64,000 bases of DNA from Cyanophyceae cyanobacterium. Its GTDB lineage: Bacteria > Cyanobacteriota > Cyanobacteriia > Cyanobacteriales > JBHJGN01. The stretch lies in NCBI GenBank assembly GCA_050331735.1, contig JBHJGN010000066.1, positions 23,532-87,531 of the forward strand, given 5' to 3'. Made by a program: the position numbers and the translations under genes. Of this stretch, positions 40,146 through 62,350 are shown piece after piece (position 1 is the stretch's first letter; each line of letters begins with the position of its first letter). The notes beneath the pieces were generated by a model. It did no database searches and was not told where the DNA came from. It saw only the letters and a program-made list of their open reading frames with translations.

Positions 40146-40347
40146 AGATTTTTGTTGATGGTTGATGGTTGATTGCTGTGTATCTCAGTGAAAAAAATTT
40201 GTTGATGGTTGAGTGCTATCTGTCTACTGCGCTTGTGTGGCTAAGTATAAGAAAGGCGATCGCGGTCGAGGGCGGTTTGGGATGGATGTGAAATTCACCT
40301 ACATAGTCGTGACAAGACAATGAACGATCAACCCACCCATCAACAAG

Positions 40348-41449: not shown

Positions 41450-41463
41450 GTAAATTCTTTTAC
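41450..41463. promoter_or_regulatory. Second NtcA-type box in the xdh/NCS2 divergent region
   Basis: GTA-AATTCTTT-TAC; no correctly spaced -10 found. Confidence 0.4.
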
Positions 41464-41504
41464 ATTATTTATTTCTGAACCTATCAAAGAGCATTCCAGT
41501 CATT

Positions 41505-41547
41505 TGTATCAAAAACTACAATAGTTTATAACTATCTTGAATAAGTT
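41505..41547 (+). promoter_or_regulatory. Class II NtcA-activated promoter of the NCS2 permease-deaminase operon
   Basis: TGTA-TCAAAAAC-TACA (41505-41520); TAAGTT (TAN3T) at 41542-41547, 22 nt after the GTA-N8-TAC. Confidence 0.75.
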
Positions 41548-41636
41548 GTTAAATAAGGTAGTATCGAAATTTTCAGAATGCCGAGCTATACGGCAACGAT
41601 CTGAAAAATGAATTCTTATTGAGGAGAACCAGAAGC

Positions 41637-43046
41637 ATGAGTCGGAAAGAGCCGTCAACTCTGACCGAAGAAACCAGTCACTCAGATGCCAACGCAGGGG
41701 GCTTGGCTGGTTTTTTTGATTTTGACCAACTCAATACTAATTTCCGGACGGAAGCTTTGGCAGGAGTGACGACGTTCGTCACAATGGCCTACATTCTCGC
41801 CGTCAATCCCGGCATTCTCTCTAATGCGATCTTCTTAGAAGAGTCGGGAGATCTGTTTGGGGAACTGGTTTTTGCGACTGCCATTTCTGCCGCGATTTCG
41901 ACGTTGGTCATGGGACTTTATGCTAAATATCCGTTTGCCCTGGCTCCAGGAATGGGAATTAATGCCTACTTTGCCTTTTCGGTCGTTCTCGGATTGGGAA
42001 TCGACTGGCGCGTTGCCCTAGCGGCGGTGTTTGTCGAGGGACTGATTTTTATCGCAATGTCTCTGTCTCAACTGCGAAGCCGCATCGTCACTGCCATCCC
42101 AGACTGTCTTAAACACGCTACTGCTGCGGGAATTGGTTTATTTATTGCCTATATTGCCCTCACGAGTAATTCGGGCATTATTGTCACCGACGAAGCGACC
42201 ACCACCAAGCTAGGAGATATCGGTCAGGCGAACACGCTGATGGCGATCGCCGGTATTCTCATAACCTCCGCGTTTATGGCTCGGCGGATCAAAGGGGCCT
42301 TGCTGATTGGGATCCTGGCCACGGCCTTACTCGGCTGGATTTTAGGGGTTGCCCCTTGGCCAGAAGGCATCGTTGGTTTTCCAGCCATTCCCACCCACAT
42401 TGCCGGACAAGCGTTTGTTGGTTTGGGGCAGGTCTTTGAAAACAACGTTTGGAATTTACTGGCGGTTCTGTTCGTTTTTCTGTTTGTCGATACGTTTGAT
42501 ACGGTGGGGACTCTTACGGGCGTTGGCGTGAAAGCTGGCTTTGTTAACGACCGAGGAGAACTCCCCAAAGCCAGTCAAGCATTTATGGCCGATGCGATCG
42601 GTACTACCGTTGGCGCCGCGTTAGGGACGTCTACAGTAGCGACCTATATTGAATCAGCATCAGGAGTATCAGAAGGAGGACGGAGTGGTTTTACAGCGGT
42701 TGTGACCGCGATTTTGTTCGCGCTAGCCATTTTTTTTACCCCCTTGCTGTCTGCCATTCCGCCGTTTGCGACCGCTTCTGCCCTACTGATTGTTGGTGTT
42801 TTGATGGCGGGTAGCATCACCGAAATTAATTGGAACGATCCGGCTGAATCTATTCCTTCTTTTTTGACAATTTTGTTTATTCCACTCAGCTTCTCCATTG
42901 CTGAAGGATTAGCCGTCGGCTTTATTAGCTATCCTCTCCTCAAATCTTTTCAAGGCAAAGCCCACGAAATCGATCTAACCGTTTGGATTTTAGCCGCCGT
43001 ATTTTTGCTTAGGTTTATTTTTCTGGCTTTAGAAATTGGAGCTTAG
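41637..43046 (+). CDS. NCS2 (AzgA-like) purine permease
   Basis: TEALAGVTTFVTMAYI, APGMG, FDTVGTL, YIESASG..GGRSG; RBS GAGGAG at 41621. Confidence 0.93.
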   Translation: MSRKEPSTLTEETSHSDANAGGLAGFFDFDQLNTNFRTEALAGVTTFVTMAYILAVNPGILSNAIFLEESGDLFGELVFATAISAAISTLVMGLYAKYPFALAPGMGINAYFAFSVVLGLGIDWRVALAAVFVEGLIFIAMSLSQLRSRIVTAIPDCLKHATAAGIGLFIAYIALTSNSGIIVTDEATTTKLGDIGQANTLMAIAGILITSAFMARRIKGALLIGILATALLGWILGVAPWPEGIVGFPAIPTHIAGQAFVGLGQVFENNVWNLLAVLFVFLFVDTFDTVGTLTGVGVKAGFVNDRGELPKASQAFMADAIGTTVGAALGTSTVATYIESASGVSEGGRSGFTAVVTAILFALAIFFTPLLSAIPPFATASALLIVGVLMAGSITEINWNDPAESIPSFLTILFIPLSFSIAEGLAVGFISYPLLKSFQGKAHEIDLTVWILAAVFLLRFIFLALEIGA

Positions 43047-43100
43047 TTCGGAAAATAATTGATCAATAAACTAACGAGCAACGAACAAAACCGACAATGA

Positions 43101-44144
<1,044 letters not shown>

Positions 44145-44157
44145 TCGATGGGCCGGT

Positions 44158-44535
44158 CTAGTCGTGACACTGCTGGCACAGTCCAAAAAATTCTAGAGTA
44201 TGATAGTAAACTTTAAACTGATGGGATTTCTCTAAGCGGTTGTCCAGATCGTTGATCGGACATTCTGCGATCGGAGTAGAGGCTCCACAATTAATGCAGG
44301 TTAGGTGATGCTGATCCTGCTGCACTAAGCTATAAAGAGATTCCCCGGTGGCTAGCGTTCGTACCTGGACATCCCCCTCTAACTTTAGAGCTTCTAAAGC
44401 TCTATAAACCGTTGCGAGCCCAATATGCTGCTTGCGGTTGCGGAGTTCAACGTAAAGCTCTTGGGCAGAAATCGCCCGGTTGAGGGTTTGCAACAGGTTA
44501 AAAATTCGCTCTTGGGAGCGAGTCCGTTTGGTCAT
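44158..44535 (-). CDS. zur: Zinc uptake regulator (Fur family, FurB/Zur)
   Basis: RTRSQERI, GLATVYRALEALKLEG, HHLTCINC, YYHTLEFFGLCQQC. Confidence 0.85.
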   Translation of the reverse strand: MTKRTRSQERIFNLLQTLNRAISAQELYVELRNRKQHIGLATVYRALEALKLEGDVQVRTLATGESLYSLVQQDQHHLTCINCGASTPIAECPINDLDNRLEKSHQFKVYYHTLEFFGLCQQCHD

Positions 44536-44647
44536 TGTTGGCTTGCTTGGAGTCTCAAATTGCCACTATTTATCTTTATTTTAGGCGCTAGCGTTATTTG
44601 GAGGTTTAAATTATAAAAACTCCGAACATCTCGGCAAGCCAAGAAAC

Positions 44648-45667
44648 CTACACAGGACTCTGAGAGGGCAGTTCTTCCGAGTGATAGGAGCGCGTTGGAG
44701 GCGGAAAACCACAGGCAGTGCCGTCTTTATGCACCACCTCGTCTTCCCAGGGCAGACGATAGCAACCGTTGACCAAATCCTTCATATAGGTGTAGGGGCA
44801 ATCCGGTGCGCCTCCGTCAACTGCAACATAGCCCCGATGCCCAAACTGATAGATATTGTTTTCTACCCCCCAGTGTATCCGGGCTTCGCGGACTAAATCG
44901 GGTCGCACCTCCGCCGTAATAATTTCATCAGGACGATGGCTCCCCGTGACTACTGGAGTCCCATCAAAGTTGATAATCATGCCCTCGCCCATCGAGTCAA
45001 ACGTACCGTCGCTGCCGCACATGCACACAGAAGCCGTACACATCAGGTTGCAGAAGGCATTGGCCTGATTGGTAATCTGCCAGGAATGGCGAATCGGTGC
45101 TGTATAGCCTGCCGTCCGCAACATAATCTCTGCCCCCTTGTAGGCACACTCCCGCGCCATTTCTGGAAACATGCCATCGTGGCAGATAATGAGCGCAATC
45201 GTGCTGCCGTTCGGACCTTCACACACCGGAATTCCCAGATTTCCCGGTTCCCAAGGCTCCACCGGAACCCACGGATGGAGCTTGCGGTAGTACAGCTTCA
45301 GTTCCCCCTGGTCATCGATAATGATGCCGCTGTTATAGGGATTTCCCTGCGGGTTGTACTCCATGATCGAAAAGCAGCCCCAAATCTGATGTTCTCTACA
45401 GGCTTGGCTAAAAGCTGCGACTTCTGGACCATCTAAACGGCACATAATTTCAGGATTCGTATCCATCGACAAGCCGTGTAGGGAGTATTCAGGAAACACC
45501 ACCAAATCCATTGTCGGCATATTGCGCCGTGCCTTCCCGACCAGGCTGCAAATCCGCCCTGTTTGAGCCGCCACATCGTCCGGTGTGATCACGTTAGGAA
45601 GCTGTAGCTGCACCATTCCTAACACAACTCCGTTGGGAGATTTATTTAAACCACCAAGTCCACTCAT
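44648..45667 (-). CDS. amiF: Formamidase (nitrilase superfamily)
   Basis: MSGLGGLNKS, FPEYSLHG, YRKLHPWVPVEPW, ICHDGMFPE (Glu-Lys-Cys triad). Confidence 0.88.
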   Translation of the reverse strand: MSGLGGLNKSPNGVVLGMVQLQLPNVITPDDVAAQTGRICSLVGKARRNMPTMDLVVFPEYSLHGLSMDTNPEIMCRLDGPEVAAFSQACREHQIWGCFSIMEYNPQGNPYNSGIIIDDQGELKLYYRKLHPWVPVEPWEPGNLGIPVCEGPNGSTIALIICHDGMFPEMARECAYKGAEIMLRTAGYTAPIRHSWQITNQANAFCNLMCTASVCMCGSDGTFDSMGEGMIINFDGTPVVTGSHRPDEIITAEVRPDLVREARIHWGVENNIYQFGHRGYVAVDGGAPDCPYTYMKDLVNGCYRLPWEDEVVHKDGTACGFPPPTRSYHSEELPSQSPV

Positions 45668-45816
45668 TTTTAATCATCCTCGTTACGTTACAGACGGTCG
45701 AAAAGTTTGGCAGTGAGGGCTAGAGAGTTTTCCACTACCAATCAAGCGGCTCTACTATTATCGTGAGTTACCAACTCACTCGTTGTTTCCCCTTCCCCCT
45801 TCCCCAAAACCTCTGA

Positions 45817-46746
45817 CTAACTATCCTGACTTCCCAACGCTCCCGGAGCCCCCAATGAAGCCCGCGTGGGCGAACAGGTCACAATCATTACGATGAGAGT
45901 CAAAATGTAGGGAGCCGCGTTAAACAAATAGTAGTAAGAATCGATGCCCACCGTTTGTAGAGCCGGACCAATGGCCTGAGCACCGCCAAACAGGAGAGCG
46001 GCGTAGAGACACTGCACCGGGTTCCAGCGAGCAAAAATAACCAGCGCTACCGCCATGAGCCCTTGGCCGCTAGAGATGCGCTCGTTCCAGCTACCGGGGT
46101 AGTCAAGAGACAAGTAAGCACCGCCGATTCCGGCTAAGAAGCTGCCGCAGACAATGGCTAGCGTTCGTACCCAAAACACAGAAATGCCCATTGCTTTCGC
46201 TGCCTCGGGATTATCCCCGACGGCTCGAATGTAAATTCCCCAGCGAGTAGAGCGGAAAAACCACTGCATGACGGGGGCGAGCACCGCACCGAGAATCAAC
46301 AGGGGGCTAATTTTGAGGGCAGCTCGTACTGGCGGCAGAGCGCTCCAGCGACCCAATTCCAGGGCCGGTAGCTGAGGAGCCACCGGCTGAATAAACGGCT
46401 TGCCCAGGAAGAAGGCAATGCCGCTGCCAAAAATAATCATGGCGATACCGACAGCAACATCGTTGACTCTCGGCTGCTGAGAAATAAGGGCGTGAATCGT
46501 ACCGAGAACCATGCCTGCTACCCCGGCCACCAGAACGCCTAGCCACGGAGACCCCGTCAGGTAGGAAACGGCGTAGGCACTCATCGCTCCCATGAGTAGG
46601 GTTCCTTCCAGCCCTAAATTAATCTTGCCGCTTTTTTCCGTGAGGCATTCGCCCAAGCTGACAAACAGAAACGGGACGCTGCCCCGCAACGTGCCAGCCA
46701 CAATCGCCAGTGGAACTCCCCACCAGCCCAGTTCAGGTGTTGCCAT
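45817..46746 (-). CDS. ABC transporter permease (BMP/nucleoside type)
   Basis: LGECLTEKSGKINLGLEG, RAVGDNPEAA, GQGLMAVALVIFARW. Confidence 0.9.
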   Translation of the reverse strand: MATPELGWWGVPLAIVAGTLRGSVPFLFVSLGECLTEKSGKINLGLEGTLLMGAMSAYAVSYLTGSPWLGVLVAGVAGMVLGTIHALISQQPRVNDVAVGIAMIIFGSGIAFFLGKPFIQPVAPQLPALELGRWSALPPVRAALKISPLLILGAVLAPVMQWFFRSTRWGIYIRAVGDNPEAAKAMGISVFWVRTLAIVCGSFLAGIGGAYLSLDYPGSWNERISSGQGLMAVALVIFARWNPVQCLYAALLFGGAQAIGPALQTVGIDSYYYLFNAAPYILTLIVMIVTCSPTRASLGAPGALGSQDS

Positions 46747-47794
46747 AGTTCTCCTGCCAGCTCGACCAGCGCCCGTAGAGGGACTCACTAAACAAAATCA
46801 CCAGGAACACTAGCCCCTGGAAGACTAACACGGTCGCATCGGGGAGCTCGTGCGCTCGCTGCAAAATGCCGCCGCTGGCTAGAATACCGCCCAAAAGCAC
46901 AGCGACTAACCCCGTGGCGAGCGGACTGTGCCGCGCCACGAACGCCACCAGAATGCCGCTATAGCCGTAGTTAGCGTTTAAAGCCTCACTAACCCGACCG
47001 TGAACCGCTGCCACCTCTACCATTCCTGCGAGTCCCGCGCAAGACCCGGCGAGAAAGCAAATAGCTAGGGTAAGCTTACCAACCGACAGTCCAGCAATTT
47101 GTGCCGCGCGAACATTGCCCCCAACAGTGCGGGCCGCAAACCCAAAGGTGGTTCGACTAATCAGGAAATAGGCAATCAGGCAGGCCACTAGCCCGTAGAG
47201 TAACCCGTAGTGCACCCGCGTTCCGGGCAGTTCCCCGAGGCGGTAGGGATCGAGCAGCGGATGGGTAGCGGGTCGATTGAGGCTGGAGGGGTCTCGCATC
47301 GGTCCTTCCACCAGTTGATTCATCAGGGCGATCGCAATATAGTTCAGCAGCAGGCTGCTAATGGTTTCGTTCACGCCGCGATAGTGGCGCAGCGCTCCCA
47401 CGATGGCAATCCAGACGCCGCCAGCAACGATGCCCGCCCCGGCCATCGCCACCAGAACCACCAGGGGCGCAGCCGATAGCGCTAATCCTACCGCCACCGC
47501 CGCTACACCGCCAACGATTAGCGCTCCCTCGTTCCCGATCACGACTAGACCGATGCGGGCTGGCAGGACCGTACACAACGCGGTCAACATCAGGGGAGCA
47601 GCGCGAATTAGGGTATTTTGCCAAGCATACCAACTGCCAAAAGCCGCTCGATAAATTGAGGCATACACGCCGAACGGATTGGCCCCGGCGATCGCACAAA
47701 AAATCCCAAACAGCAGCAGCGCCGTAGCGACCGCCGCAATTGGAATCACCACCGCTTCTAGCTTCCTGCCCGGTAGCAGCTTCATCATTCCCAC
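46733..47794 (-). CDS. ABC transporter permease (BMP/nucleoside type)
   Basis: IGNEG, GVNETISSLLLNYI, GGNVRAA, GYSGILVA. Confidence 0.9.
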   Translation of the reverse strand: MGMMKLLPGRKLEAVVIPIAAVATALLLFGIFCAIAGANPFGVYASIYRAAFGSWYAWQNTLIRAAPLMLTALCTVLPARIGLVVIGNEGALIVGGVAAVAVGLALSAAPLVVLVAMAGAGIVAGGVWIAIVGALRHYRGVNETISSLLLNYIAIALMNQLVEGPMRDPSSLNRPATHPLLDPYRLGELPGTRVHYGLLYGLVACLIAYFLISRTTFGFAARTVGGNVRAAQIAGLSVGKLTLAICFLAGSCAGLAGMVEVAAVHGRVSEALNANYGYSGILVAFVARHSPLATGLVAVLLGGILASGGILQRAHELPDATVLVFQGLVFLVILFSESLYGRWSSWQENYGNT

Positions 47795-47875
47795 TTCATG
47801 TCAAGCAACAGCAACAAACCTTTGCCAATGCCGACCCCACTTTTTGAATTGTTCATGCTCGATGTTGCCTTCTCA

Positions 47876-49063
47876 TCAAGTGGTCCTCCCAATTACCCCT
47901 TCCACCAGCCAGTCCATTTTTTCCAGCTCAATATTCTGCTGTTCGTAGGCCTCCCCCGCCGGAATCACCACGTTTCCCTGATTGTCTCTGAGTTCCCCTT
48001 GGTAAATTACCATCGTGCCGTCCATAAACTTGGCTTTTGCCGCTTCAGCATCCTGCTTAGCCTGCTCGCTCACCGCCGGACCGTAGGGCGATAGCTTCAC
48101 AAATCCAGCCTCCAGTCCTCCCCGCACGAGATGAGGAATGCCGCCGTTCATTAAGGTTTTACCCTCGGTCATCATTTGGGCATAGTCGGAATAAACCTTC
48201 GACCAGTCCCACTCCGCACCCGTTAAATAGCCGTTGGGAGCAAGGGCTGCCTGATTCTCGTGATAGCCAGAGCAAAAAACGCCCCGTCCCTCTGCCGTTT
48301 CCATGACCACTTTCGGGCTATCCACGTGGCAGGTGAGGACGTCTGCGCCCTGGTCGATTAAGCTATTGGAGGCTTCCGCTTCTTTGACAGGCATCGCCCA
48401 ATCTCCGGTAAAGACTACCTGAGTGGTTGCCTGGGGGTTGACGCTCCGCGCTCCTAGAGTAAAGCTATTGATGTTGCGCAACACCTGGGGAATGGGCTTA
48501 GCGGCTACAAATCCCAGTTTCCCCGTTTTCGATGTATGTCCAGCCACAATTCCGGCAAGATACTGCGCCTCATCGATGTAGCCGAAATAGCTGCCTACAT
48601 TGTCTGGATGAACGTCTTCTTGGTAGAGAGCGCCACAGTGGAAGAACTGAACCTCTGGGTATTCCTGGGCCACTTCAAGAATATGGGGGTCAAAGTAGCC
48701 AAAGGAGGTGGGATACAGCACCGTTGCCCGATCGAGGTTGATCATGTTCCGCATACTTTCCTGAACGGCGGCGGTTTCGGGCACGTTGGCTTCTTCAGTG
48801 GCTTCGATCGTCTCTTGCTGGGCAACTCCTTCTTTGCCTTCGGCATGAGCTTGATTGTAGCCGTAGTCGTCTTTCGGACCAACGTAAATAAAGCCCATCA
48901 CCAGCGGACCGCCGCCAGCCGCATCGGTTGATGCCTGCTTTCCCTGGCGGCTACATCCGGTTCCCCACTTGAGGGTCGCGCCGAAGGCTCCGGTGGCGAG
49001 AAGACCCCGAACTACTTGTCGGCGAGAAATTCTACTTAAGTAGTGACTAACCTGTTCCTTCAT
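47876..49063 (-). CDS. BMP family ABC substrate-binding lipoprotein, Tat-exported
   Basis: SRRQVV twin-arginine motif, GTGC lipobox-like, GFIYVGPKDDYGYNQAH, TSFGY; start uncertain. Confidence 0.88.
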   Translation of the reverse strand: MKEQVSHYLSRISRRQVVRGLLATGAFGATLKWGTGCSRQGKQASTDAAGGGPLVMGFIYVGPKDDYGYNQAHAEGKEGVAQQETIEATEEANVPETAAVQESMRNMINLDRATVLYPTSFGYFDPHILEVAQEYPEVQFFHCGALYQEDVHPDNVGSYFGYIDEAQYLAGIVAGHTSKTGKLGFVAAKPIPQVLRNINSFTLGARSVNPQATTQVVFTGDWAMPVKEAEASNSLIDQGADVLTCHVDSPKVVMETAEGRGVFCSGYHENQAALAPNGYLTGAEWDWSKVYSDYAQMMTEGKTLMNGGIPHLVRGGLEAGFVKLSPYGPAVSEQAKQDAEAAKAKFMDGTMVIYQGELRDNQGNVVIPAGEAYEQQNIELEKMDWLVEGVIGRTT

Positions 49064-49147
49064 GTCTGGCTTTAAGCTCAATCTAGTGACGCGGTACTCG
49101 GGTTTAAGCGATTAAAGACTAGGAAAATATATTTCAGCCAGATTTTT

Positions 49148-51642: not shown

Positions 51643-54600
51643 CTAAATCTGAGCGATCGCTTCGGCAAGCATCCCGATAGTCAAGCGAATTTGCTCCTCA
51701 CTATGAACGCTCGTGACGAAAAAGCGCAGGCGAGCAGCATCGTAGGGAACAGAAGGATACACCATTGGCTGAACGTTGATCCCTCTTTGAAAGAGAAGTT
51801 GAGACAACTGCACGGCTTTACGAGGTTCGCCAACAATCACGGGAATAATCGGTGAGTCTTTGCTCGTGCCCGTATTGAATCCTTTATCTTTGGCTAATTC
51901 TAAAAACAGTTTCGCTCTCTCTTGCAAACGAGTCACCCGTTCCGGTTCCGCCTCCAAAAGCTGAAGGGCAGCTAGGGCAGCAGCGGCGTTAGCCGGAGAC
52001 ATGCCGACGCTATAGACAAAGCCCGGAGCCGTATACTTCAAATACTGCACCACTTCGCGACAGCCAGCGATATAGCCCCCGCAGCTTGCAAAAGATTTAC
52101 TCAAGGTTCCCATCCACAAATCCACCTCAGCCGCCAGAACGCCGTAATACTCGCCGATTCCCCGTCCTGATGCACCGAGTACGCCCACCGAATGGGCTTC
52201 GTCTACCATCAGCAAAGCTTTATAGCGGTGCTTCACGTCCACAAACTGCGGCAGCGGCGCAATATCTCCATCGGTGCTGTAAATTCCCTCGATAGCAATC
52301 AGCACTTTCTCATACTGATAGCGATACTGAGCCAGCATAGCTTCTAGCGTCTGCCAGTCGTTATGGGGAAACTCCATAACGGCTGCCCCAGAAAGCTGAC
52401 AGCCTTGGCGAATGCTGTTGTGGCTGATGGCATCGCACAGCACCAGATCGTTTGGCCCAAACAAATGACCGATGGTGGAGACGTTCGTCGCGTGTCCACC
52501 AATATAAATAATACAGTCTTCCGTATCAAGGAAATGGGCGATCGCCTCCTCCAATTTTCGGTGCAGCGGTCGTTCCCCAGACACAACCCGACTGGCAGAA
52601 ACAGACGTGCCGTAGCGCTCAATAGCGGCTTGCGCTGCCCGAGTCACGCGGGGGTCTCCAGATAAACCAAGATAGTTATAGCTAGAGAAATTAATCACTT
52701 CTCTGCCGCTAATTTGCGCTGTATCTCTGGCAATACCTTCGTGAACGGTAAAAAACGGATTGCCGAGCTTTTCTACTCTCGCCAAGTCCTGCTGGAGGTT
52801 TAGGTACTCCGGCATTTGAGAGAAGCGGTAGAATTTTTCTGGAATTTTCTGCTGAACAGATAATTGGATCGGTGCAGGATGTTGTTTACTCCCGTTGAGC
52901 GCAGGCTTTAGCTGAGGCTCTTGACGTGGCGATGGTCCACTGTCTACAGCAACCTGACTAATGTCAGGTAACGACCGCAAATAATCCGTGAGCGCTTCCA
53001 CCGTCGGGTAATCAAAGAACAACGTTTGCGGAATCGAGCATCTCAGGCTCGCCTGCAAGCTGTTTTTAAATTCCACCGCCATCAGAGAATCCATGCCTAA
53101 ATCGGCAAAGTTATCCTGCGTGTCAATCAGACCCGGGTCACTAAAGCCGAGCACCTTTGCCAGTTGAGACTGAACGTGGACCAGAAGAGAGGAGCGATCG
53201 CTCGCTTCCTCGATCTGCTGTTGCCCCTGAGAACTTGATGGCTTAAACTCCGGCGCTGGCTGCACGGCCTCAAAGAACGGATCGCGGGCCTGCTGCCAGA
53301 ACGTGGACCAGTTAATCGGCAACACCCCCACCTGCACTGCCTGCTGCTGCAACAGCAGTTCTAAAAGCGGTAGCCCCTGCTGCGGAGCAATTTTCCCGAT
53401 TCCCTGCTGTCTTAGTCTCTCCTGATCGCATTTATCTGCCGCCATGCCGATGCTCCACGGTCCCCAGTTGATACTTAATCCCGGTGAGCCGAGAGCATGA
53501 CGATGCTGCATTAACGCATCCATGAAAGCGTTAGCTGCTGCATAGTTACTCTGTCCCGGCGAACCTAGGAGTGAAGCAATCGAAGAAAAACAGACAAAGA
53601 AATCGAGCGGGACATCCTGGGTAGCAACGTGCAGGTTCCAGGCTCCGGCGACTTTGGGCTTCATCACCCGCTCGAAGCGATCGCGGTTTTGCTGCATCAG
53701 CAGTCCGTCATCGAGGACTCCGGCGGCGTGAATGACTCCCCTCAGCGGCACAGATGCCATTGCCACTAGGCGAGTCACGTCGTCGGGGTTAGAAATATCG
53801 GCTGGCACAACGGTCACGCAAGCCCGTGACTCTAGCTGTCGAATCGTCTCTTGCACCGATGCAGAATAGGTGCGTCCGGCGAGGATTAAATGCTTCGCTC
53901 CCTGCTCAACGAGCCACTGCGCTACCTGAAGCCCTAAAGCGCCTAACCCCCCCGTCACCAGATAGCTGCTGTCTTTTCTAATCAGTTGGGGGTTAGGGAA
54001 CGAAATGACAACTTTGCCAATGTGCTTGGCCTGAGCCATGTACCGAAACGCCTGCGCTGCCTCGGTAATGGGAAAGACCCGATGGGGTAACGGCTGGTAG
54101 TGGCCCTGCTGAAACTGTTGCATCACTTCGGTTAGCAGATTAGCAATCAATTCGGGTTGCTGCTGCGATACCTCTAGTAAGTCAAAGGGAAAGTAGGACA
54201 CATCCCCTCGCTCCTGCTTCACCTGGTGATCGCTCCAAATCCCGACCTTACCAATTTCGACAAAGCGACCGTTCGCTGCCAGAACCGCTAAATTTTTGGC
54301 AATAAATTCTCCATTAAGACTATTGAAAACCAGATCAACTCCTCGTCCTCCGGTAAGCTGCATTACCTCCTCGGCAAAATCGAGAGTCCGGGAGTTCATC
54401 ACGTGCTGGATGCCCTGAGAATTCAGAAACTCCCACTTGGGCGGACTAGCGGTGGCAAAGACTTCGGCTCCAGCTTGTTGAGCGATCTGTACGGCGGCTT
54501 GTCCGACACCTCCCGCCGCTGCGTGAATTAACACGCGATCGCCTGCCTTAATCTTAGCGAGATAATGCAGCCCATAAAAGGCCGTCAGAAACGCCGTCGG

Positions 54601-57600
54601 CAACGTGGCGGCAGCAGCAAAGCTTAAGGACTGGGGCTTGGGCACTACGAACTCCGCCTTCACCGTCACAAAACTACTCAAGCTGCCGATTGCCTGTGCC
54701 GCCATCACCTCATCGCCTACCTCAAGTCCGGTCACCCCGGCTCCCACCGCCACAACTGTGCCCGCACATTCACCGCCAAAGGGAACCGCCGCTGCCTCGG
54801 TAATGCCCATCTCTGCCAAATAGTCTTGAAGCATTCCCAACGCATTCATGACATCTCGAAAGTTCACCCCAGCCGCTCGCACCTGAATTTCCACCTCTCC
54901 TGGCTGAGGTGAACGACGCTCCGTTGGCACTAGGGTTAGGTTGTCGAGGACTCCATAAGCCGATAGTTGCAACTGCACCGGGTTAGCGAGGGCAGCGGCG
55001 GCGGTTCTAGAACGCGGCATCAAGCGGGCCACATAGCGGACTCCTTGACGGTAAGCTACCTGCTTCTCTGCATCCGGGGCCAATTCGTTCAGGAGTTCCT
55101 GGATATTGTCGGCTGCTGGATCTAAATCGATGCACCGACACAAATCGGGATGCTCTAGATTGATGGTGCGTCCCAGTCCCCATAAAGCACTCTGCTGAAC
55201 TCGCACGGGTGCAGACGTAACTGCTTGGGTTCCTCGCGTTACTAGTAAAAGTTGGGGTAGCGCTGTTGGCTGCACCTGAATGAAAGACTGAACGAGCTGG
55301 AGAACGGGATTGCAGACTTGAACGGCATCAGTGTTTGTCTTCTCTAAACTCCAAAGATAGATAACTCCATCACAGTCGGCTTGAGCAATAGCCGTCTGAA
55401 GCTTCTGCCGATCCGGGTCAGTTGGCTCAATGCAGATATGCGGATACTGAGTATCCGTGGAACTGGCAAAAACTAGTACACACCGATCGCCCCGTTCTTC
55501 GAGTAACCGTGCTAGCCTGACTCCAAGGTGGCGATCGCTAAAAATCAGCCAGCTTCTCTGTTCTTCTCGCTGGTGTTGCAGAGGTTGGGGCTGCCAAACC
55601 AGTTCATACAGCCAATCTGTCCGCTGGGTCGGATGGCTGGTAGACTGAAGCAAGAGTCCGTCAATTTGGGCGATCGCCCCTCCAGATTGGGTGAAAATTG
55701 TCAAGTTTGCTTTGAGCTGACGAGCAGAGCCATTAAACTCTTCTAGCTGCACCTGACAGAAACAGGTTGAGTCTGCTATGGCCCCTGATGTTTGCAGTCG
55801 CTCTACCCCCACCGGTAAAAATCTCCCCGGCTGTTCGTCACCACAGGCCGCTCCTAAAGACTGGAAACAGGCATCGAGTAGTACAGGATGGAGCTGATAC
55901 CCTGCTAAAGCAACTGATTCTGGGATCTGTATTTGGGCCAGGGCGCGACTTTCTCCCCGCCAAAGCTGCTGAATGGCTTGAAAACTCTCGCCGTAGTCCA
56001 GTCCTTGCTTCCGCAGTTGCTGATAGTAATCGGTGACTGAAACGGGTGCTGATGGATATTCTAAGTTGACGCTGCGCTCAAGCGGCGCTTGTTCGGCAAT
56101 GACTCCAGAAGCGTGAAGCGTTGAGGCGGCAGCACTATCGCCGACAAGGCTGTAAATTTGGAAGCGGTAGTGCTCTTGCTGCGGCGTAAGCACGAACTGA
56201 AGATTAACGTCTGCATCTGTCAGCACCAAAGCTTCTGCAATCGTCAACTGCTCAATCTGCACAGATTCAAAGACGCTAGCGCCAGCGGCTAAGGCCATTT
56301 CTACATAGGCAGAAGCGGGGAAAATAACTTTTGTCCCGACGCGATGATCTGTTAAATAGGCAAGATGAGCTTGATTAAGGCGCGACTGAAAGCGAATTTC
56401 TGCACTGCCTGCCAGCACAATTCGTTGACCAAGCAGGGGATGGAAAGAACTGTTTAAGGGATGCTTGCCCGAAGCCGCCGCCGGAAGACGCTCTGGCAGA
56501 ACTTTGGGCAAATCGTCACACCAGTACCGCTGACGCTGGAACGGATAGGTCGGCAACGGCACAAATTGATGCGGAGAATCCCCCTCAAAGCAGGACCAGT
56601 TGATTTTGACTCCGTGAGTGTAGAGTTGAGCCAGACTGGAGAGAAGGGTTTGCCAGTCTCGGTCGGAACGCAGACTGGGAAGAAATTCGGAATTGTCTGC
56701 TTGCTGCGTTTGTTGTTGATTCTCTAGAACAGCTCGCCCCATACTGCTCAGGAGCGGCTTAGGTCCGCATTCTAGGAAAAGGCTGTAGCCGGAACGGTGA
56801 AGTGTCTTGATGCCGTCTGCAAACCTGACAGTTTGTTGAATATGGCGACACCAGTATTGGGGAGTGGCGATTTCTGCTCCGATGGTGTCGCCGGTAACGT
56901 TTGAAATAATGTCGAGACGCGGTGGCGCATAGTCAATCTCACGGGCAACCTGCTCAAACTCCGCCAGCATCGGCTCCATGAGAGGGGAATGAAAGGCGTG
57001 GGACACATTGAGGGGAGTGGTATGTATCCCGTTGGTGGTAAACTTGGCAACGGCAGCAGCGATCGCCTCCCGTTCCCCGGAGATGACTACATTAGCAGGA
57101 CCATTCACGGCAGCGATCGCAACATCTAGATGAGAAGCGATCGCCTCGCGCACTTCCGCCTCACAAGCCGCTACTGACACCATCGCGCCCTCTTGAGGCA
57201 ACGCCTGCATCAAGCGTCCTCGGAGGGCAATCAGTCTTAAAGCCGCTTCTAAACTAAATACCCCAGCAATGCAGGCGGCGACGTATTCCCCAACGCTATG
57301 GCCTAACACCGCCGTTGGCACAACGCCCCAGGAAATCCAGAGCTGAGCGAGGGCGTATTCAATGGCAAATAGCGCTGGTTGGGTGTAGACTGTCTGATTG
57401 AGGAGCCTTGCTTCCCCTAGCTGAGGATAGAGGATGTCAATGAGGGAGCGGTCGAGCTCCGGCTCTAAAATGGCGGCGCAGCGGTTGAGCGTGGTGCGAA
57501 AAAGCGGAGAGGTTTGGTAAAGCTGATGTCCCATGTGGGGATATTGGGAACCCTGCCCGGTGAAGAGAAAGGCGATTGGCGATGGGCTAGTTGAGGGTTG

Positions 57601-59121
57601 AAATTTATGTTGTCCAGCCTGACGAAGCTGTTCGCGCAACTGTTCTGTTGACTGGGCGACAACGGCGAGGCGATGATGGAAATGCGATCGCCTGGTATTG
57701 GCGCTAAAACACACATCGGCTATGTCAACGTCGGGATAGTCCTCCAAAAACTGACAATAGCGCTGCGCTAATTCTGCTAAAGCATTGCCGCTGCGAGCCG
57801 AAAGCGCCAGCAACTGCACCGGGCGCTCCCCGGCTTCCTGGCGATTCACGGGTGGCTCGCTAGCTGACAGCACAACATGGGCATTCGTGCCGCCAAAGCC
57901 AAAGGAATTGACTCCCGCTACCGGAGTAGATTCCCAAGAAGTCAATGTTGTCTGAACCCGCAACGGCTGGTTATCTAAGCCGGGATGGGGGTGTTGACAG
58001 TGCAAACTCGGTGGAATCTGCCCGTACTTTAATGACAGCGCTACTTTGATCAGTCCGGCTATTCCGGCAGCGGTTTCTAAGTGTCCGATGTTGGTTTTCA
58101 CCGAGCCAATGGCACAGGGAGTTGCGGAGAGGCGTTCTGACAACACCGTTCCTAGGGCTTGTAGTTCTGTAGTATCTCCGAGCTTCGTTCCGGTTCCGTG
58201 GGCTTCGATATACTGAATTTGCCCGGGAGAGATTCCCGCCTGTCGGCAGGCGGCGCGGATTACGGCTTCTTGAGCCTGGGCATCGGGGGCAGCCAGTCCG
58301 TTGCTGCCGCCGTCTTGGTTAACGGCACTGCCGCGAATCACGGCATAAGTTGGGTCGCCGTCTGCCTGGGCTTGAGCGAGCGGCTTCAGCACCACAACCC
58401 CCGCTCCCTCACTGCGAACGTAGCCATCGGCTTGAGCATCAAAGCTTTTGCAGCGTCCATCGGGAGCTAGAAACCCGCCTTTAGTAAAGCCAATGGTGGT
58501 GGTGGGCAGCAGGAGAACGTTCACTCCTCCGGCTAGCGCTAAGCTCGATTCGCCCCGCCAGAGGCTGTGACAGGCTAGATGAACCGCGACGAGGGAAGAA
58601 GAACAGGCCGTCTCCACAGCCAGACTCGGTCCTTTGAAGTTAAAGACGTAGGAAAGCCGATTAGCGGCGATACAGTTGCCTGTTCCTGTGGTGACGTAAG
58701 GGTTGTTGCACAGGGGTTGGGAGTACAGAATCGAGTAATCGTGGGTGCCAGTACCGATAAATACTCCTGTTTGTGTTCCGGCGAGCTGCTCTGGAACCTG
58801 ACCGCCATCTTCGAGGGCTTCCCACGCCACCTCCAGCAGAAGGCGCTGCTGTGGGTCCATGCTGACGGCTTCTTTGGGAGCAATGCCAAAAAACTGGGGG
58901 TCGAACTGGTCAATCTGTTGGAGAAAGCCCCCGCGACGGATGTTGGTTTTGTTGGGCTTGGTGGGGTCGGGATCGTAGAACTGCTTGCTGTCCCAGCGAG
59001 ACTGCGGCACCTCCGTAATAGTGTCTACTCCGTGTTGCAAAAGCCGCCAAAAGGCTTGGGGACGATCGGCTCCCGGAAAACGACATCCAATTCCAACGAT
59101 GGCAATAGGCTCTGGGGGCAT
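51643..59121 (-). CDS. Type I PKS (KS-AT-DH-ER-KR-ACP) with C-terminal PLP alpha-oxoamine synthase domain
   Basis: KS ETACSSS, HGTGT, NIGHLE; AT GHSVG and HAFH; DH HRVGTKVIFP and LLDACFQ; ER LIHAAAGGVG; KR GGLGALG, LDD, NYAAAN; ACP GMDSL; oxoamine synthase SYNYLGL, SHNSI, DEAHS, GTLSKS. Confidence 0.93.
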   Translation of the reverse strand: MPPEPIAIVGIGCRFPGADRPQAFWRLLQHGVDTITEVPQSRWDSKQFYDPDPTKPNKTNIRRGGFLQQIDQFDPQFFGIAPKEAVSMDPQQRLLLEVAWEALEDGGQVPEQLAGTQTGVFIGTGTHDYSILYSQPLCNNPYVTTGTGNCIAANRLSYVFNFKGPSLAVETACSSSLVAVHLACHSLWRGESSLALAGGVNVLLLPTTTIGFTKGGFLAPDGRCKSFDAQADGYVRSEGAGVVVLKPLAQAQADGDPTYAVIRGSAVNQDGGSNGLAAPDAQAQEAVIRAACRQAGISPGQIQYIEAHGTGTKLGDTTELQALGTVLSERLSATPCAIGSVKTNIGHLETAAGIAGLIKVALSLKYGQIPPSLHCQHPHPGLDNQPLRVQTTLTSWESTPVAGVNSFGFGGTNAHVVLSASEPPVNRQEAGERPVQLLALSARSGNALAELAQRYCQFLEDYPDVDIADVCFSANTRRSHFHHRLAVVAQSTEQLREQLRQAGQHKFQPSTSPSPIAFLFTGQGSQYPHMGHQLYQTSPLFRTTLNRCAAILEPELDRSLIDILYPQLGEARLLNQTVYTQPALFAIEYALAQLWISWGVVPTAVLGHSVGEYVAACIAGVFSLEAALRLIALRGRLMQALPQEGAMVSVAACEAEVREAIASHLDVAIAAVNGPANVVISGEREAIAAAVAKFTTNGIHTTPLNVSHAFHSPLMEPMLAEFEQVAREIDYAPPRLDIISNVTGDTIGAEIATPQYWCRHIQQTVRFADGIKTLHRSGYSLFLECGPKPLLSSMGRAVLENQQQTQQADNSEFLPSLRSDRDWQTLLSSLAQLYTHGVKINWSCFEGDSPHQFVPLPTYPFQRQRYWCDDLPKVLPERLPAAASGKHPLNSSFHPLLGQRIVLAGSAEIRFQSRLNQAHLAYLTDHRVGTKVIFPASAYVEMALAAGASVFESVQIEQLTIAEALVLTDADVNLQFVLTPQQEHYRFQIYSLVGDSAAASTLHASGVIAEQAPLERSVNLEYPSAPVSVTDYYQQLRKQGLDYGESFQAIQQLWRGESRALAQIQIPESVALAGYQLHPVLLDACFQSLGAACGDEQPGRFLPVGVERLQTSGAIADSTCFCQVQLEEFNGSARQLKANLTIFTQSGGAIAQIDGLLLQSTSHPTQRTDWLYELVWQPQPLQHQREEQRSWLIFSDRHLGVRLARLLEERGDRCVLVFASSTDTQYPHICIEPTDPDRQKLQTAIAQADCDGVIYLWSLEKTNTDAVQVCNPVLQLVQSFIQVQPTALPQLLLVTRGTQAVTSAPVRVQQSALWGLGRTINLEHPDLCRCIDLDPAADNIQELLNELAPDAEKQVAYRQGVRYVARLMPRSRTAAAALANPVQLQLSAYGVLDNLTLVPTERRSPQPGEVEIQVRAAGVNFRDVMNALGMLQDYLAEMGITEAAAVPFGGECAGTVVAVGAGVTGLEVGDEVMAAQAIGSLSSFVTVKAEFVVPKPQSLSFAAAATLPTAFLTAFYGLHYLAKIKAGDRVLIHAAAGGVGQAAVQIAQQAGAEVFATASPPKWEFLNSQGIQHVMNSRTLDFAEEVMQLTGGRGVDLVFNSLNGEFIAKNLAVLAANGRFVEIGKVGIWSDHQVKQERGDVSYFPFDLLEVSQQQPELIANLLTEVMQQFQQGHYQPLPHRVFPITEAAQAFRYMAQAKHIGKVVISFPNPQLIRKDSSYLVTGGLGALGLQVAQWLVEQGAKHLILAGRTYSASVQETIRQLESRACVTVVPADISNPDDVTRLVAMASVPLRGVIHAAGVLDDGLLMQQNRDRFERVMKPKVAGAWNLHVATQDVPLDFFVCFSSIASLLGSPGQSNYAAANAFMDALMQHRHALGSPGLSINWGPWSIGMAADKCDQERLRQQGIGKIAPQQGLPLLELLLQQQAVQVGVLPINWSTFWQQARDPFFEAVQPAPEFKPSSSQGQQQIEEASDRSSLLVHVQSQLAKVLGFSDPGLIDTQDNFADLGMDSLMAVEFKNSLQASLRCSIPQTLFFDYPTVEALTDYLRSLPDISQVAVDSGPSPRQEPQLKPALNGSKQHPAPIQLSVQQKIPEKFYRFSQMPEYLNLQQDLARVEKLGNPFFTVHEGIARDTAQISGREVINFSSYNYLGLSGDPRVTRAAQAAIERYGTSVSASRVVSGERPLHRKLEEAIAHFLDTEDCIIYIGGHATNVSTIGHLFGPNDLVLCDAISHNSIRQGCQLSGAAVMEFPHNDWQTLEAMLAQYRYQYEKVLIAIEGIYSTDGDIAPLPQFVDVKHRYKALLMVDEAHSVGVLGASGRGIGEYYGVLAAEVDLWMGTLSKSFASCGGYIAGCREVVQYLKYTAPGFVYSVGMSPANAAAALAALQLLEAEPERVTRLQERAKLFLELAKDKGFNTGTSKDSPIIPVIVGEPRKAVQLSQLLFQRGINVQPMVYPSVPYDAARLRFFVTSVHSEEQIRLTIGMLAEAIAQI

Positions 59122-59401
59122 AGGTGTTCGAGAGTTGATGAGACAGCGGTGGTTAGGCGATCGCATCCCGTATAGCACGACGGGTTTTTTGTTGACAAGT
59201 CACCGTTAGCCCGTCGTAGGACAAGCGAGTATGCGGCGATCGTTAGTAAATTTGAACTGAAGCTACGAATTTAAAAGACAATCGGCGTTTCCGTCAAGAC
59301 ATTTTAGTGAAGATCTGTTGGCCTAAAGGGGAAAACTGCCCTTTTTGGGGAGGGAAAAGATTATCTTAAAAAGAAGCTCACTGTATTGGTCGGCAATTAG
59401 T

Positions 59402-59949: not shown

Positions 59950-60558
59950 ATGATTATTGTTATTACGGCTTTAAAAGGAGGAACCGGAAAGACCACAACG
60001 GCGATTCATTTGGCGGCTCATTTTCACGAACAGGCTCCTACTTTGCTGATTGATGCCGATAAAAATCGGTCGGCGTTGATCTGGTCTAGAGAAGAGAAAC
60101 TGCCTTTCTATGTGGCTTCTCAGGCAGGCTCGACGGCGCTGATTAGAAAAGCGACTCATATTATTATCGATACTCAAGCGCGTCCAGAAATCGAAGAACT
60201 CAAAGATTTAGCGGCGGAGAGTGATTTACTCGTTATTCCCACCACTCCGAATCATTTAGATATTGATGCTACTCTCAAAGCGGTGGAACTCCTTCAGTCT
60301 TTCAATGCTCAGTACAAAGTGCTGCTAACTCAAGTAGATTCGCGCACCAAGCACGGACGCAGCGCTAGGAAGCAGTTGGAAAAACTCGATCTGCCGCTAT
60401 TTAAAACCGATATTCCCCGTCTGGTAGCGTTTGAGCGAGCACCGAGTCAAGGCGTGACGGTGAAAGATTATCCCGATCCCCGCGCGCAAAAGGCGTGGTC
60501 TAGGTATCAGGCTGTGGGACGAGAGATTCTATCGATAAGCGGCAATGACGGCGATTGA
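59950..60558 (+). CDS. ParA/MinD family ATPase (short ParF/McdA-like type)
   Basis: KGGTGKTT deviant Walker A, IDADKN, IIDTQARP; no N-terminal HTH. Confidence 0.88.
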   Translation: MIIVITALKGGTGKTTTAIHLAAHFHEQAPTLLIDADKNRSALIWSREEKLPFYVASQAGSTALIRKATHIIIDTQARPEIEELKDLAAESDLLVIPTTPNHLDIDATLKAVELLQSFNAQYKVLLTQVDSRTKHGRSARKQLEKLDLPLFKTDIPRLVAFERAPSQGVTVKDYPDPRAQKAWSRYQAVGREILSISGNDGD

Positions 60559-60865
60559 ACTAAATTTATCTTTTCGCCAGCAGGAAGGGATTACTTTTCA
60601 GCGTCTCAGTATTCGGCTTACTGCACCTGATGGGTTGATTGAGCCGCAGGATTTGGCGGGACTGACTCTGCCAAAAGGGGTTCAGTGGACTCAGGGAATT
60701 GTGCTGGAGGGGCGAGCACCAATTTGGCTCTATGGCTATTTGGTTCACATCTGCCATGCGGCGGCGTGGGTAGGATGTTACGATCCGAGGCTGGGGGGAG
60801 CGGTGGTGGTGGAAAGTCACGTTAAGGGAATGGCGGTTGGGAGAGTGCTCAAGGTTTCGCTGTAG
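60545..60865 (+). CDS. csx3: CRISPR ring nuclease Crn3/Csx3
   Basis: GIVLEGRAPIWLYGYLVH..H..WVGCYDPRLGGAVVVESH is the Csx3 signature. Confidence 0.88.
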   Translation: MTAIELNLSFRQQEGITFQRLSIRLTAPDGLIEPQDLAGLTLPKGVQWTQGIVLEGRAPIWLYGYLVHICHAAAWVGCYDPRLGGAVVVESHVKGMAVGRVLKVSL

Positions 60866-60966
60866 ACGAGTTTGATCCCTTTTCCCCAAGATCTACCGTT
60901 TTGTCATGCCTTACAGAATGCTATATCTCGTTGCTCTGTTTTCTCCTGGCGTGATTTTCCATTGCC

Positions 60967-61206
60967 TTATGCTGTTACGGCTAAACGAAAGTCAGCAGCA
61001 ATATCTAGTTCGAGAACGTTTGAGTCTTTGAGGCGTTCTTGGAAAAAAGGAATTTCAACCCCTTCTACCTCATCCGTTTCTGGATTGTGGCGAGTGATCA
61101 CATCATCATCTCGATGTTCTAGCTCTTGTTCTTCGTATGGCTTCACCGTATCAATGTAGAGAATATCGCCAATGCGGTCATAATTAACGATCAACTTCTT
61201 GTCCAT
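60967..61206 (-). CDS. DUF2283 family protein (putative antitoxin)
   Basis: YDRIGDILYID..EVEGVEI; overlaps the upstream gene. Confidence 0.75.
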   Translation of the reverse strand: MDKKLIVNYDRIGDILYIDTVKPYEEQELEHRDDDVITRHNPETDEVEGVEIPFFQERLKDSNVLELDIAADFRLAVTA

Positions 61207-61517
61207 AAGACTTTCCCTTTTGGTAAGTTTCGAGCGCGATAAGCAGTAACAATCCAACTTCGCTCAACGGGTTCTAGGTCGCTTCTAACTATCACAATAA
61301 CGTACTTGCGGCGCTGAAAGTCGTCATAGAAGCGGCAAAACAAGCGAGTATTTGAGTTTTGCTGACTTCGGTGAATTTTATCTGGTTCAGCTATAGTTTG
61401 AGCCAAACGCTCTAGATAATCTTGGATCAATGTTGGATGACGATTTTCAATGTGTTCCTCTCTTTCGTCTGTTAGCTCGACATCTTTCCCTAAGTAGGGA
61501 CAAGAAAACTGTTCCAT
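61191..61517 (-). CDS. Putative BECR-fold nuclease toxin (PBECR2/DUF4258-like)
   Basis: LTDEREEHIENRHP..TIAEPD..VIVIV..WIVTAY; paired with DUF2283. Confidence 0.65.
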   Translation of the reverse strand: MEQFSCPYLGKDVELTDEREEHIENRHPTLIQDYLERLAQTIAEPDKIHRSQQNSNTRLFCRFYDDFQRRKYVIVIVRSDLEPVERSWIVTAYRARNLPKGKVLWTRS

Positions 61518-61654
61518 TTTCTTAAGTGGTCTTCTCTCTCAGCACTAAAATTTTACTTTTACCCACTCGTAAATACTGACGCTCATTTAAAATGTAGGAC
61601 TCTGTGGGTTCTTACTAAGACTAAAATTAGGTTGTTCGACGTAGAGATTTTTCT

Positions 61655-62350
61655 ATGTTTGCCGTCGTTACCTCCGACACAACCCATCTCCGACCAGGTG
61701 CGGTCGTGCAGTTTCCCGGTAGCTGGGAAGAATATTCAACACTCGCTTCACGCCGAGGAGATGGCACAACTCCTCGCATCAAGTATCGCCAAGGAGAAAT
61801 TCTCTTAATGTCTCCTCTTCCCCAGCACGGACGTTCTGCTAGCTTAGTTGCCGATATAGTCAAAGCGATTTTAGACTTTCTCGGTCAAAACTATGAAGCC
61901 TTTACTCCGATTACAATTGAACTTCCCCAGGTAGGAGGAATTGAACCTGATTTCTGTTTTTACATCAAGAATTGGCAAGCTGCTGTCGGGAAAGACCGTA
62001 TTGACTGGACTATCGCTCCTCCTCCCGATCTCGCTATCGAAATTGATGTTACCAACTACACCAATATTGAAGATTACTTAATCTATCGCATTCCTGAAGT
62101 TTGGCTGCTTAGAAGCGATTTCCTCCAGGATAGCTCCGCTTCACGCTTACAGATCTATTTGTTAACTGAGGACCAGTACATTACTTCCGAGAGGAGTCTG
62201 TTTTTCCCCAATCTCGACATCACTGCCATTATTGCTGACTGCTCAAGCGCTGCTTCTACTCAGGGTAGTGGTGCAGCTATGCAGCAGTTGAGAGAAAGGC
62301 TGAAGCGGTATCATGCTACGTCCGAAGAGCCATCAGCGCGCTGCCTGTAG
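61655..62350 (+). CDS. Uma2 family (PD-(D/E)XK) endonuclease-like protein
   Basis: LMSPLPQH, GIEPDFCFY, PPPDLAIEIDVT, IPEVW. Confidence 0.88.
   Translation: MFAVVTSDTTHLRPGAVVQFPGSWEEYSTLASRRGDGTTPRIKYRQGEILLMSPLPQHGRSASLVADIVKAILDFLGQNYEAFTPITIELPQVGGIEPDFCFYIKNWQAAVGKDRIDWTIAPPPDLAIEIDVTNYTNIEDYLIYRIPEVWLLRSDFLQDSSASRLQIYLLTEDQYITSERSLFFPNLDITAIIADCSSAASTQGSGAAMQQLRERLKRYHATSEEPSARCL

Follow-up and report, generated by a model that had tools for sequence, protein, structure and literature searches.

Does a polyketide synthase (PKS) that carries its own release domain also work alone? The question is raised by a gene in a 64,000-nucleotide stretch of DNA from a Cyanophyceae cyanobacterium (the whole stretch is hereafter called the window; positions 23,532 to 87,531 of contig JBHJGN010000066.1, assembly GCA_050331735.1), in which a fully reducing PKS module with ketosynthase (KS), acyltransferase (AT), dehydratase (DH), enoylreductase (ER), ketoreductase (KR) and acyl carrier protein (ACP) domains is fused to a pyridoxal phosphate (PLP)-dependent alpha-oxoamine synthase (AOS) domain. 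The first-pass annotation had read this gene, here called PKS-AOS, as a stand-alone, iterative or fatty-acid-primed synthase of a long-chain sphingoid-like base. The observations reported here concern domain content, intact motifs, orthology, gene neighbourhoods and co-occurrence, and they correct the idea that PKS-AOS works alone. With moderate confidence, they point to PKS-AOS being the terminal module of a split two-module line, which would release an alpha-aminoketone that is subsequently reduced to a vicinal amino alcohol.

Probable partner modules in relatives and in the source genome

Genomes (G), contigs (C) and fetched loci (L) are numbered, G000 being the source genome of the window, and the phylum was sampled with 401 evenly drawn cyanobacterial genomes. 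Orthologous loci, defined by a KS at least 64% identical and the presence of an ER, were found at 12 distinct places (L034 and L073 are one place). At five of these 12 loci a second PKS adjoins PKS-AOS, with the order adenylation loader-ACP-KS-AT-DH-ER-KR-ACP and no release domain. The 2,695-aa loader-PKS of G202 ends 4 nt ahead of PKS-AOS, the same kind of protein is encoded next door in divergent or convergent orientation in G017 and G014, and it lies directly downstream of PKS-AOS in Limnospira (L056) and directly upstream in Chroococcus FPU101. An HMGL-like gene sits between the two PKS genes of G017, and an isopropylmalate synthase (IPMS)-like gene is found upstream, at the locus edge, in L058. 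The contigs of two further loci of the 12 are too short for the presence of a partner to be decided. Five further genomes were reached by way of the loci, and three of them also gave loader matches, namely G401, where the match is adjacent, G403, where the partner ortholog is on another contig than PKS-AOS, and G405.

The AOS domain closest to that of the window in the sample (70% identity) belongs to G158, a genome that is split like G000: PKS-AOS is on C23 and is the only AOS among the matches listed at E<=1e-60 (three of 14 candidates scored), and a loader-PKS with an HMGL-like gene is on C4. The C4 cluster also carries the short-chain dehydrogenase/reductase (SDR) that is linked to AOS genes, and in G017 the same SDR is separated from the loader-PKS frame by about 2.6 kb; the presence of this SDR near both loader-PKS genes therefore ties the two PKS loci together. 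In the C4 cluster (L134, positions 1082-18080), the genes after the 3,056-aa loader-PKS encode a KS-only protein of 646 aa with 54% identity to the window KS, an SRPBCC cyclase-like protein and the SDR, and a Rieske/PaO oxygenase and a DAO oxidase are encoded on the far side of the HMGL-like gene.

The search for partner genes elsewhere in the genome, which the first-pass annotation had recommended, yielded an ortholog of the loader-PKS on C55 of G000 (L053, 7724-15904). This 2,726-aa protein has the partner architecture (adenylation loader-carrier-KS-AT-DH-ER-KR-ACP) and is encoded beside a divergent HMGL-like (IPMS/HphA-like) gene. It is the best G000 match of the G202 partner (46% over 2,747 aa; 2,196 bits vs 1,376 for the next match) and of the G017 partner (51%), the loader being included in both cases, and the HMGL-like proteins of C55 and G017 are 63% identical. 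The C55 PKS has no thioesterase (TE) or other release domain, and ends in an ACP followed by a tail, LSEYEAEALLLDELDNL, that is common to the G202 and G158 partners and appears docking-like. The description of PKS-AOS as stand-alone is thus true of the window, where no partner is present locally, but not of the family, in which the partner is adjacent at five of 12 loci, nor of the source genome with its ortholog on C55. Dependence on a remote line, named beforehand as evidence against a self-sufficient enzyme, is largely what was found. An IS605-type TnpB gene (L053, 5855-7126) lies immediately downstream of the C55 loader-PKS.

The best PDB relatives of the C55 loader are McyG A-PCP (4r0m, 1e-137) and a keto-acid-selecting adenylation domain (6ulw, 4e-136); structures of fatty acyl-AMP ligases (FAALs) score 3e-54 or worse. 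In the alignment, the C55, G158, G017 and G202 loaders are without the FAAL insertion of approximately 25-30 residues, which is present in all four true FAALs of G000 (two on C4, one in the Ols-type synthase on C61 and one on C11). A FAAL identity of the partner loader was ruled out on these two grounds, and the fatty-acid priming proposed at first pass is not borne out. Since the loader is of the McyG/keto-acid type and not a FAAL, an aryl or 2-oxo acid appears more likely as the starter than a fatty acid.

By its scores, all of which fall under the cut-offs, the HMGL-like neighbour of the C55 PKS is related to homocitrate/isopropylmalate synthases, and it presumably resembles HphA of homophenylalanine (anabaenopeptin) synthesis. 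Its orthologs were found in 14 of the 401 genomes, G014 and G202 not being among them; five of the six that were fetched have no similar PKS alongside, and L136, the sole one scanned with Pfam, is located behind nonribosomal peptide synthetase (NRPS) genes. Matches of the loader type are present in 17 of the 401 genomes, NRPS contexts included.

The fused gene and its AOS family

PKS-AOS is encoded on the reverse strand by a single uninterrupted frame (51643-59178) of 2,511 aa counted from the GTG at 59178. Initiation at the ATG at 59121 gives 2,492 aa; the identical database protein P0002 is equally long, and this start agrees with the one chosen at first pass. Domain coordinates are as follows, with residues of motifs and domains in the 2,511-aa numbering:

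51643..59121, reverse strand: PKS-AOS gene, 2,492 aa from the ATG at 59121, frame open to the GTG at 59178
57997..59112, reverse strand: KS domain, residues 23-394 (Pfam, E 8e-96), with TACSSS (C192), HGTGT (H327) and NIGH (H366)
56608..57570, reverse strand: AT domain, residues 537-857 (Pfam), with GHSVG (S628) and HAFH at 727
55627..56442, reverse strand: DH domain, residues 913-1184 (Pfam), with HPLL at 913, the catalytic His in LTDHRVG and the Asp in LLDACFQ at 1102
54004..54906, reverse strand: ER domain, residues 1425-1725 (Pfam), with LIHAAAGGVG at 1550
53452..53967, reverse strand: KR domain, residues 1738-1909 (Pfam), with GGLGALG, LDD at 1822 and Y1879
52978..53172, reverse strand: ACP domain, residues 2003-2067 (Pfam), with GMDS (S2031)
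51685..52701, reverse strand: PLP-dependent AOS domain, residues 2160-2498 (Aminotran_1_2, E 7e-53), with DEAHS at 2326 and GTLSK containing the Schiff-base Lys K2361

The His motif of the DH, LTDHRVGTKVIFP (LTDHRVG), was read by eye from the translation, the pattern search having missed it. With all motifs present in the order KS-AT-DH-ER-KR-ACP, the protein belongs to the fully reducing modular type I PKSs, and HAFH in the AT is taken by us to be a malonyl-type motif. Chance would by no means produce a 7.5-kb frame in which seven domains match in the canonical order, and the gene is real and intact. No thioesterase, and no methyltransferase or GNAT domain, was found among the Pfam matches of the protein. 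The first-pass description of a single module that ends in a PLP domain in place of a thioesterase, with HAFH, LDD, DEAHS and GTLSK in its translation, was confirmed in full.

The terminal domain is an AOS by its Aminotran_1_2 fold, by the Lys of GTLSK and the His of DEAHS, and by its structural relatives, which are AOS enzymes. Serine palmitoyltransferases (SPTs) are the best PDB matches (3a2b and 8guh, E 4e-74), and SPT, ThAOS, KBL, BioF and ALAS are all matched at E<1e-50. The domain scores under every NCBIfam equivalog cut-off (score vs cut-off: bioF, 365 vs 426; SPT-CFB, 331 vs 640; KBL, 318 vs 460; SPT-beta, 305 vs 500; ALAS, 245 vs 339; CqsA-type, 179 vs 428).

More than 100 proteins with this domain order, 56-70% identical, were retrieved with the ACP-AOS end as query, and all taxa named for these are cyanobacterial, for example Pleurocapsa PCC 7319, Stanieria PCC 7437, Xenococcus PCC 7305 and Thermocoleostomius. 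In the phylum sample, AOS matches are present in 174 of the 401 genomes, the majority being of a BioF-like class with approximately 37-40% identity to the window AOS, and a distinct class (43-100% identity, E<=3e-114) accounts for 25 matches in 24 genomes. Within the distinct class the AOS is fused, in a frame of 2,465-2,746 aa, in five genomes (G000, G158, G017, G014 and G202); the remaining members occur as ACP-AOS (~545 aa), as AOS alone (~445 aa) or as FAAL-ACP-AOS (~1,080 aa). These unfused forms adjoin a FAAL and a carrier protein in 11 of 13 loci scanned, G101 and G288 being the exceptions. A scan with one genome per species gave 596 relatives, many Pirellulales, Myxococcota and Acidobacteriota among them.

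In a FastTree phylogeny of 107 AOS domains, for which the supports are SH-like only, the fused fully reducing forms make up one clade (15 of the 107 rows, support 100), sister to a cyanobacterial clade of FAAL-linked ACP-AOS proteins that holds the C4 paralog of G000 (support 95), and both clades are far from the BioF-like rows. Fused PKS-AOS is a monophyletic, conserved cyanobacterial family, and apparently an uncharacterised one: literature searches, which left out most subscription journals, found no paper on a cyanobacterial fused PKS-AOS, and a term search of the text of Calteau et al. 2014 (PMC4247773) gave nothing on such a gene.

Proposed route and competing explanations

An SDR gene is located directly behind the AOS in eight of 100 loci tabulated, including the fused locus L093, and its ortholog in G000 (65-68% identical) is on C29 (L140, 7081-8007). 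Orthologs of this SDR occur in 21 of the 401 genomes, 19 of which hold a carrier-linked AOS; 16 of the 21 belong to the 24 genomes with the distinct AOS class, and three further ones (G131, G174 and G192) hold a 34%-identical AOS in a frame of 1,095-1,099 aa that ends approximately 30 nt before the SDR. The SDR is present in every one of the five sampled genomes that carry the fused gene. Its co-occurrence with carrier-linked AOS, as would be expected of a step akin to 3-ketosphinganine reduction, speaks for an aminoketone that is reduced to an amino alcohol, and the C29 SDR is a candidate for the 3-keto reductase.

Genes of envelope-type tailoring are also found around the family. An LpxO-like hydroxylase (Asp_Arg_Hydrox) adjoins the fused gene in three of the 12 loci, and unfused cassettes in eight rows (seven distinct places). 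GT4, hydroxylase, PagL-like and PMT_2-like genes all flank PKS-AOS in G017, G014 and L058, and partial sets are present in G158 (GT4 and PMT_2-like), L056 (PMT_2-like) and L057 (GT4). In G000 the orthologs are scattered, with the hydroxylase on C20, a PMT2-like gene and a GT4 on C11 and a second GT4 on C67; no PagL-like counterpart was found in this genome at E<=1e-10. The C20 hydroxylase gene overlaps one for an Eis-like GNAT-SCP2 acyltransferase (L141, 5913-7824), and the C11 pair lies in a run of a PLD-like gene, the third FAAL, the PMT2-like membrane protein and the GT4 (L142, 2879-9712).

From these observations we infer the hand-over of the chain between two PKS proteins, the starter acid, the amino acid, the chain length and every chemical step of the following route. 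The McyG/keto-acid-type loader of the C55 PKS would activate a non-fatty carboxylic acid, possibly an aryl acid or a 2-oxo acid from the IPMS-like enzyme, and the first module would add a single fully reduced C2 unit. The window KS would receive the chain and PKS-AOS would add a second fully reduced malonate unit, after which the fused AOS would condense the ACP-bound acyl thioester with an amino acid in a decarboxylative Claisen reaction, releasing a 2-amino-3-ketone with loss of CO2. The C29 SDR would probably reduce this ketone to the vicinal amino alcohol, and the LpxO-like hydroxylase, GT4 and PMT_2-like glycosyltransferase that are clustered in relatives may decorate the product. Decarboxylative condensation with an amino acid had been predicted at first pass, and is supported by the intact AOS, its fusion behind the ACP, the lack of a thioesterase and the co-occurring SDR. 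The sphingoid part of that proposal fares less well: the aminoketone chemistry is plausible, but a long-chain base would be possible only if the modules iterate, because the loader of the partner is of the McyG/keto-acid type and not a FAAL. If neither module iterates, the chain would comprise the starter, C4 and the amino-acid carbons, and would be much shorter than a sphingoid base.

Several observations weigh against a two-module line. No partner was found within the fetched flanks of four of the 12 orthologous loci, or in the window, and no loader of the C55 type was found at E<=1e-60 in G402 and G404, which are metagenome-assembled genomes of unknown completeness. G014 is not among the matches listed in the phylum loader search, in which three candidates per genome were scored. 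PKS-AOS proteins begin just 4-22 residues ahead of the KS and no N-terminal docking helix is recognisable in them, and other PKS genes in G000 could in principle pair with the C55 PKS. Neither of the genes beside PKS-AOS in relatives serves as a marker of the system: the HMGL-like gene was rejected as one, since it adjoins NRPS genes too and is missing from G014 and G202, and the loader was rejected since the same type occurs in NRPS contexts. The scores of the AOS domain, all under the NCBIfam equivalog cut-offs, also point to no particular amino acid.

The strongest competitor is a self-sufficient, iterative fully reducing PKS, primed with an acetyl or fatty-acyl group, whose AOS releases a long-chain 3-ketosphinganine-like base, much as if PfSgaA and PfSgaB were joined in a single protein; we consider it unlikely. 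The fused gene does contain a complete KS-AT-DH-ER-KR-ACP module, PfSgaA of Pseudomonas is an iterative monomodular PKS that gives C24-C28 sphinganines (PMC12134224), SPTs are the top PDB matches of the AOS domain and the AOS-linked SDR is present, and the partnerless flanks and the two loaderless genomes listed above would be expected of such an enzyme. Against this, the partner module is adjacent at five of the 12 loci and has orthologs on other contigs in G000, G158 and G403, the C55 partner has no release domain and a docking-like tail, and iteration is not readable from sequence.

A free-standing FAAL (on C4 or C11) could alternatively prime PKS-AOS in trans with a fatty acid for a single extension, the C55 PKS then belonging to another pathway, which appears more doubtful still. 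Three free-standing FAALs, each with the FAAL insertion, are encoded in G000, that of C11 lies beside the PMT2-like and GT4 pair whose orthologs flank PKS-AOS in G158, G014, G017 and L058, and the sister AOS clade is always FAAL-linked. However, both C4 FAALs sit with their own ACP-AOS, and a FAAL is adjacent in none of the 12 fused loci, whereas a non-FAAL loader-PKS is adjacent in five.

That PKS-AOS is a stranded remnant, parted from its partner by rearrangement and no longer productive, is very improbable: the TnpB gene on C55 could be a trace of a rearrangement by which the two PKS genes came apart, and together with the mobile/defence-like islet (ParA-like, Csx3, PBECR and Uma2) directly upstream of PKS-AOS it fits such an event in an only suggestive way, but the 7.5-kb frame is uninterrupted with every catalytic motif intact, G158 has the same split arrangement, and split PKS clusters can still work.

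Related systems and neighbouring genes

Release of a PKS chain by an AOS is known from several systems. Fumonisin (Fum1/Fum8) and sphingofungin are made by fungal PKS and AOS pairs. In the prodiginine enzymes RedL and PigH an oxoamine synthase domain is fused C-terminally behind the PKS carrier domain as the release step; their modules are not known to contain DH-ER-KR, they turn glycine or serine into a pyrrole ring, and they are encoded in pig/red clusters. SxtA of saxitoxin synthesis is a characterised cyanobacterial MT-GNAT-ACP-AONS protein that is not known to contain KS, AT, DH, ER or KR, and uses arginine as the amino acid. PKS-AOS is like SxtA in that a cyanobacterial carrier domain is fused to a class II aminotransferase-type AOS for decarboxylative condensation with an amino acid; an SxtA-like identity was ruled out since Pfam found no methyltransferase or GNAT domain in it. 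It differs from RedL/PigH in that its flanks in the window contain no pig/red genes. The fungal pairs, to which the myriocin pair MyrB/MyrA also belongs (PMC13612406), follow a design like that predicted for PKS-AOS, in which a PLP-dependent AOS takes the chain off a highly reducing PKS as a sphingoid-like amino ketone or alcohol; they are eukaryotic iterative PKSs with separate AOS proteins, and the likeness is drawn from descriptions.

The closest characterised system is PfSgaAB(C) of Pseudomonas fluorescens MYb115, in which an AOS receives the acyl-ACP of a type I PKS and joins it to an amino acid (Peters et al. 2025, PMC12134224). There, the iterative monomodular type I PKS PfSgaA and the separate AOS PfSgaB, for which SPT activity with L-serine was shown, give the C24-C28 sphinganines, with an SDR as the proposed 3-keto reductase. 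PKS-derived bacterial sphingolipids are thus already published, although they are not known from cyanobacteria, and a PKS-derived sphingoid would not be the first of its kind. The genus list given there for 6,101 homologous clusters has no cyanobacterial genus, and the survey looked for two-gene pairs, a design that would miss fused forms. PKS-AOS resembles PfSgaAB in the passage of a PKS chain to an AOS and in the AOS-associated SDR, for which a 3-keto reductase role is inferred; unlike in PfSgaAB, its AOS is fused, a loader-bearing second module is the likely partner, and de novo assembly of its starter is improbable.

Sphingoid-type bioactive lipids are the products of AOS-released PKS chains in fungi and, as has been known since 2025, in Pseudomonas. 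In the cyanobacterial family described here the AOS is fused to a fully reducing module, and the genes that co-occur with it encode a loader module not of the fatty-acid type, a dedicated SDR and envelope-type tailoring enzymes. The genes on C55, C66 and C29, with further candidates on C20 and C11, are a concrete candidate set for possible amino-alcohol lipids or alkaloid-like amino ketones in cyanobacteria.

The sister system is FAAL-fed. On C4 of G000 (L031, 4788-10868), an ACP-AOS gene (549 aa), whose AOS is 58% identical to that of the window, comes after two FAAL genes of 599 and 593 aa, each of which encodes the FAAL insertion. Cassettes of this type also occur in Trichodesmium erythraeum IMS101, Lyngbya PCC 8106, Arthrospira PCC 7345 and many Pirellulales, and many Planctomycetes hold the sister system. 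Such FAAL/ACP/AOS cassettes share with PKS-AOS the sister AOS clade, the SDR partner and the LpxO-like hydroxylase neighbour, but differ in that a fatty acid, brought in by the FAAL, directly supplies the acyl chain with no PKS extension, a logic which we take to resemble that of Caulobacter AasR-AcpR-Spt. The C4 cassette is a better candidate than PKS-AOS for a fatty-acid-derived sphingoid-like base. No characterised cyanobacterial FAAL/ACP/AOS cassette was found in the literature searches. One block in G298 (L042 on C170, 1938-11779) combines a FAAL, a FAAL-ACP-AOS (1,078 aa), an SDR, LicD, Stealth and GT4 genes and a divergent inositol-1-phosphate synthase, which points to an amino-alcohol lipid whose head group would be a phospho-sugar or inositol.

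A broader proposal, which we regard as speculative and unlikely, is that many cyanobacteria make an as yet undescribed class of hydroxylated, glycosylated vicinal amino-alcohol (sphingoid-like) lipids of the envelope. Their backbone would come from a carrier-linked AOS, FAAL-fed in certain lineages and PKS-fed in the rest, and be finished by the SDR, the LpxO-like hydroxylase, GT4 and the PMT_2-like protein, with PKS-AOS as the PKS-fed backbone synthase.

Within the 64-kb window, no loader, ligase or second PKS was found in the flanks of PKS-AOS, as the first-pass annotation had stated. The downstream flank encodes an Nfu/HEAT protein, a DUF3891 protein and a nucleoside ABC transporter, and the upstream flank a 105-aa open reading frame without a family, a ParA-like protein and Csx3. 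A scan for promoters and terminators gave matches at or under the shuffled expectation and was uninformative. The islet just upstream of PKS-AOS (59950-62350) comprises a ParA-like ATPase, a stand-alone Csx3, a PBECR-type nuclease fragment and a Uma2 endonuclease. Elsewhere in G000, C61 carries an olefin-synthase-type PKS (L052, 7904-16045; FAAL-ACP-KS-AT-KR-ACP-sulfotransferase-hydrolase, 2,713 aa) followed by a DUF6208 gene and accA. A block of purine catabolism and salvage genes occupies positions 37407-49081 of the window, with xanthine dehydrogenase subunits, a xanthine/uracil permease, adenosine deaminase, Fur, a CN-hydrolase and a BMP-family nucleoside ABC transporter.

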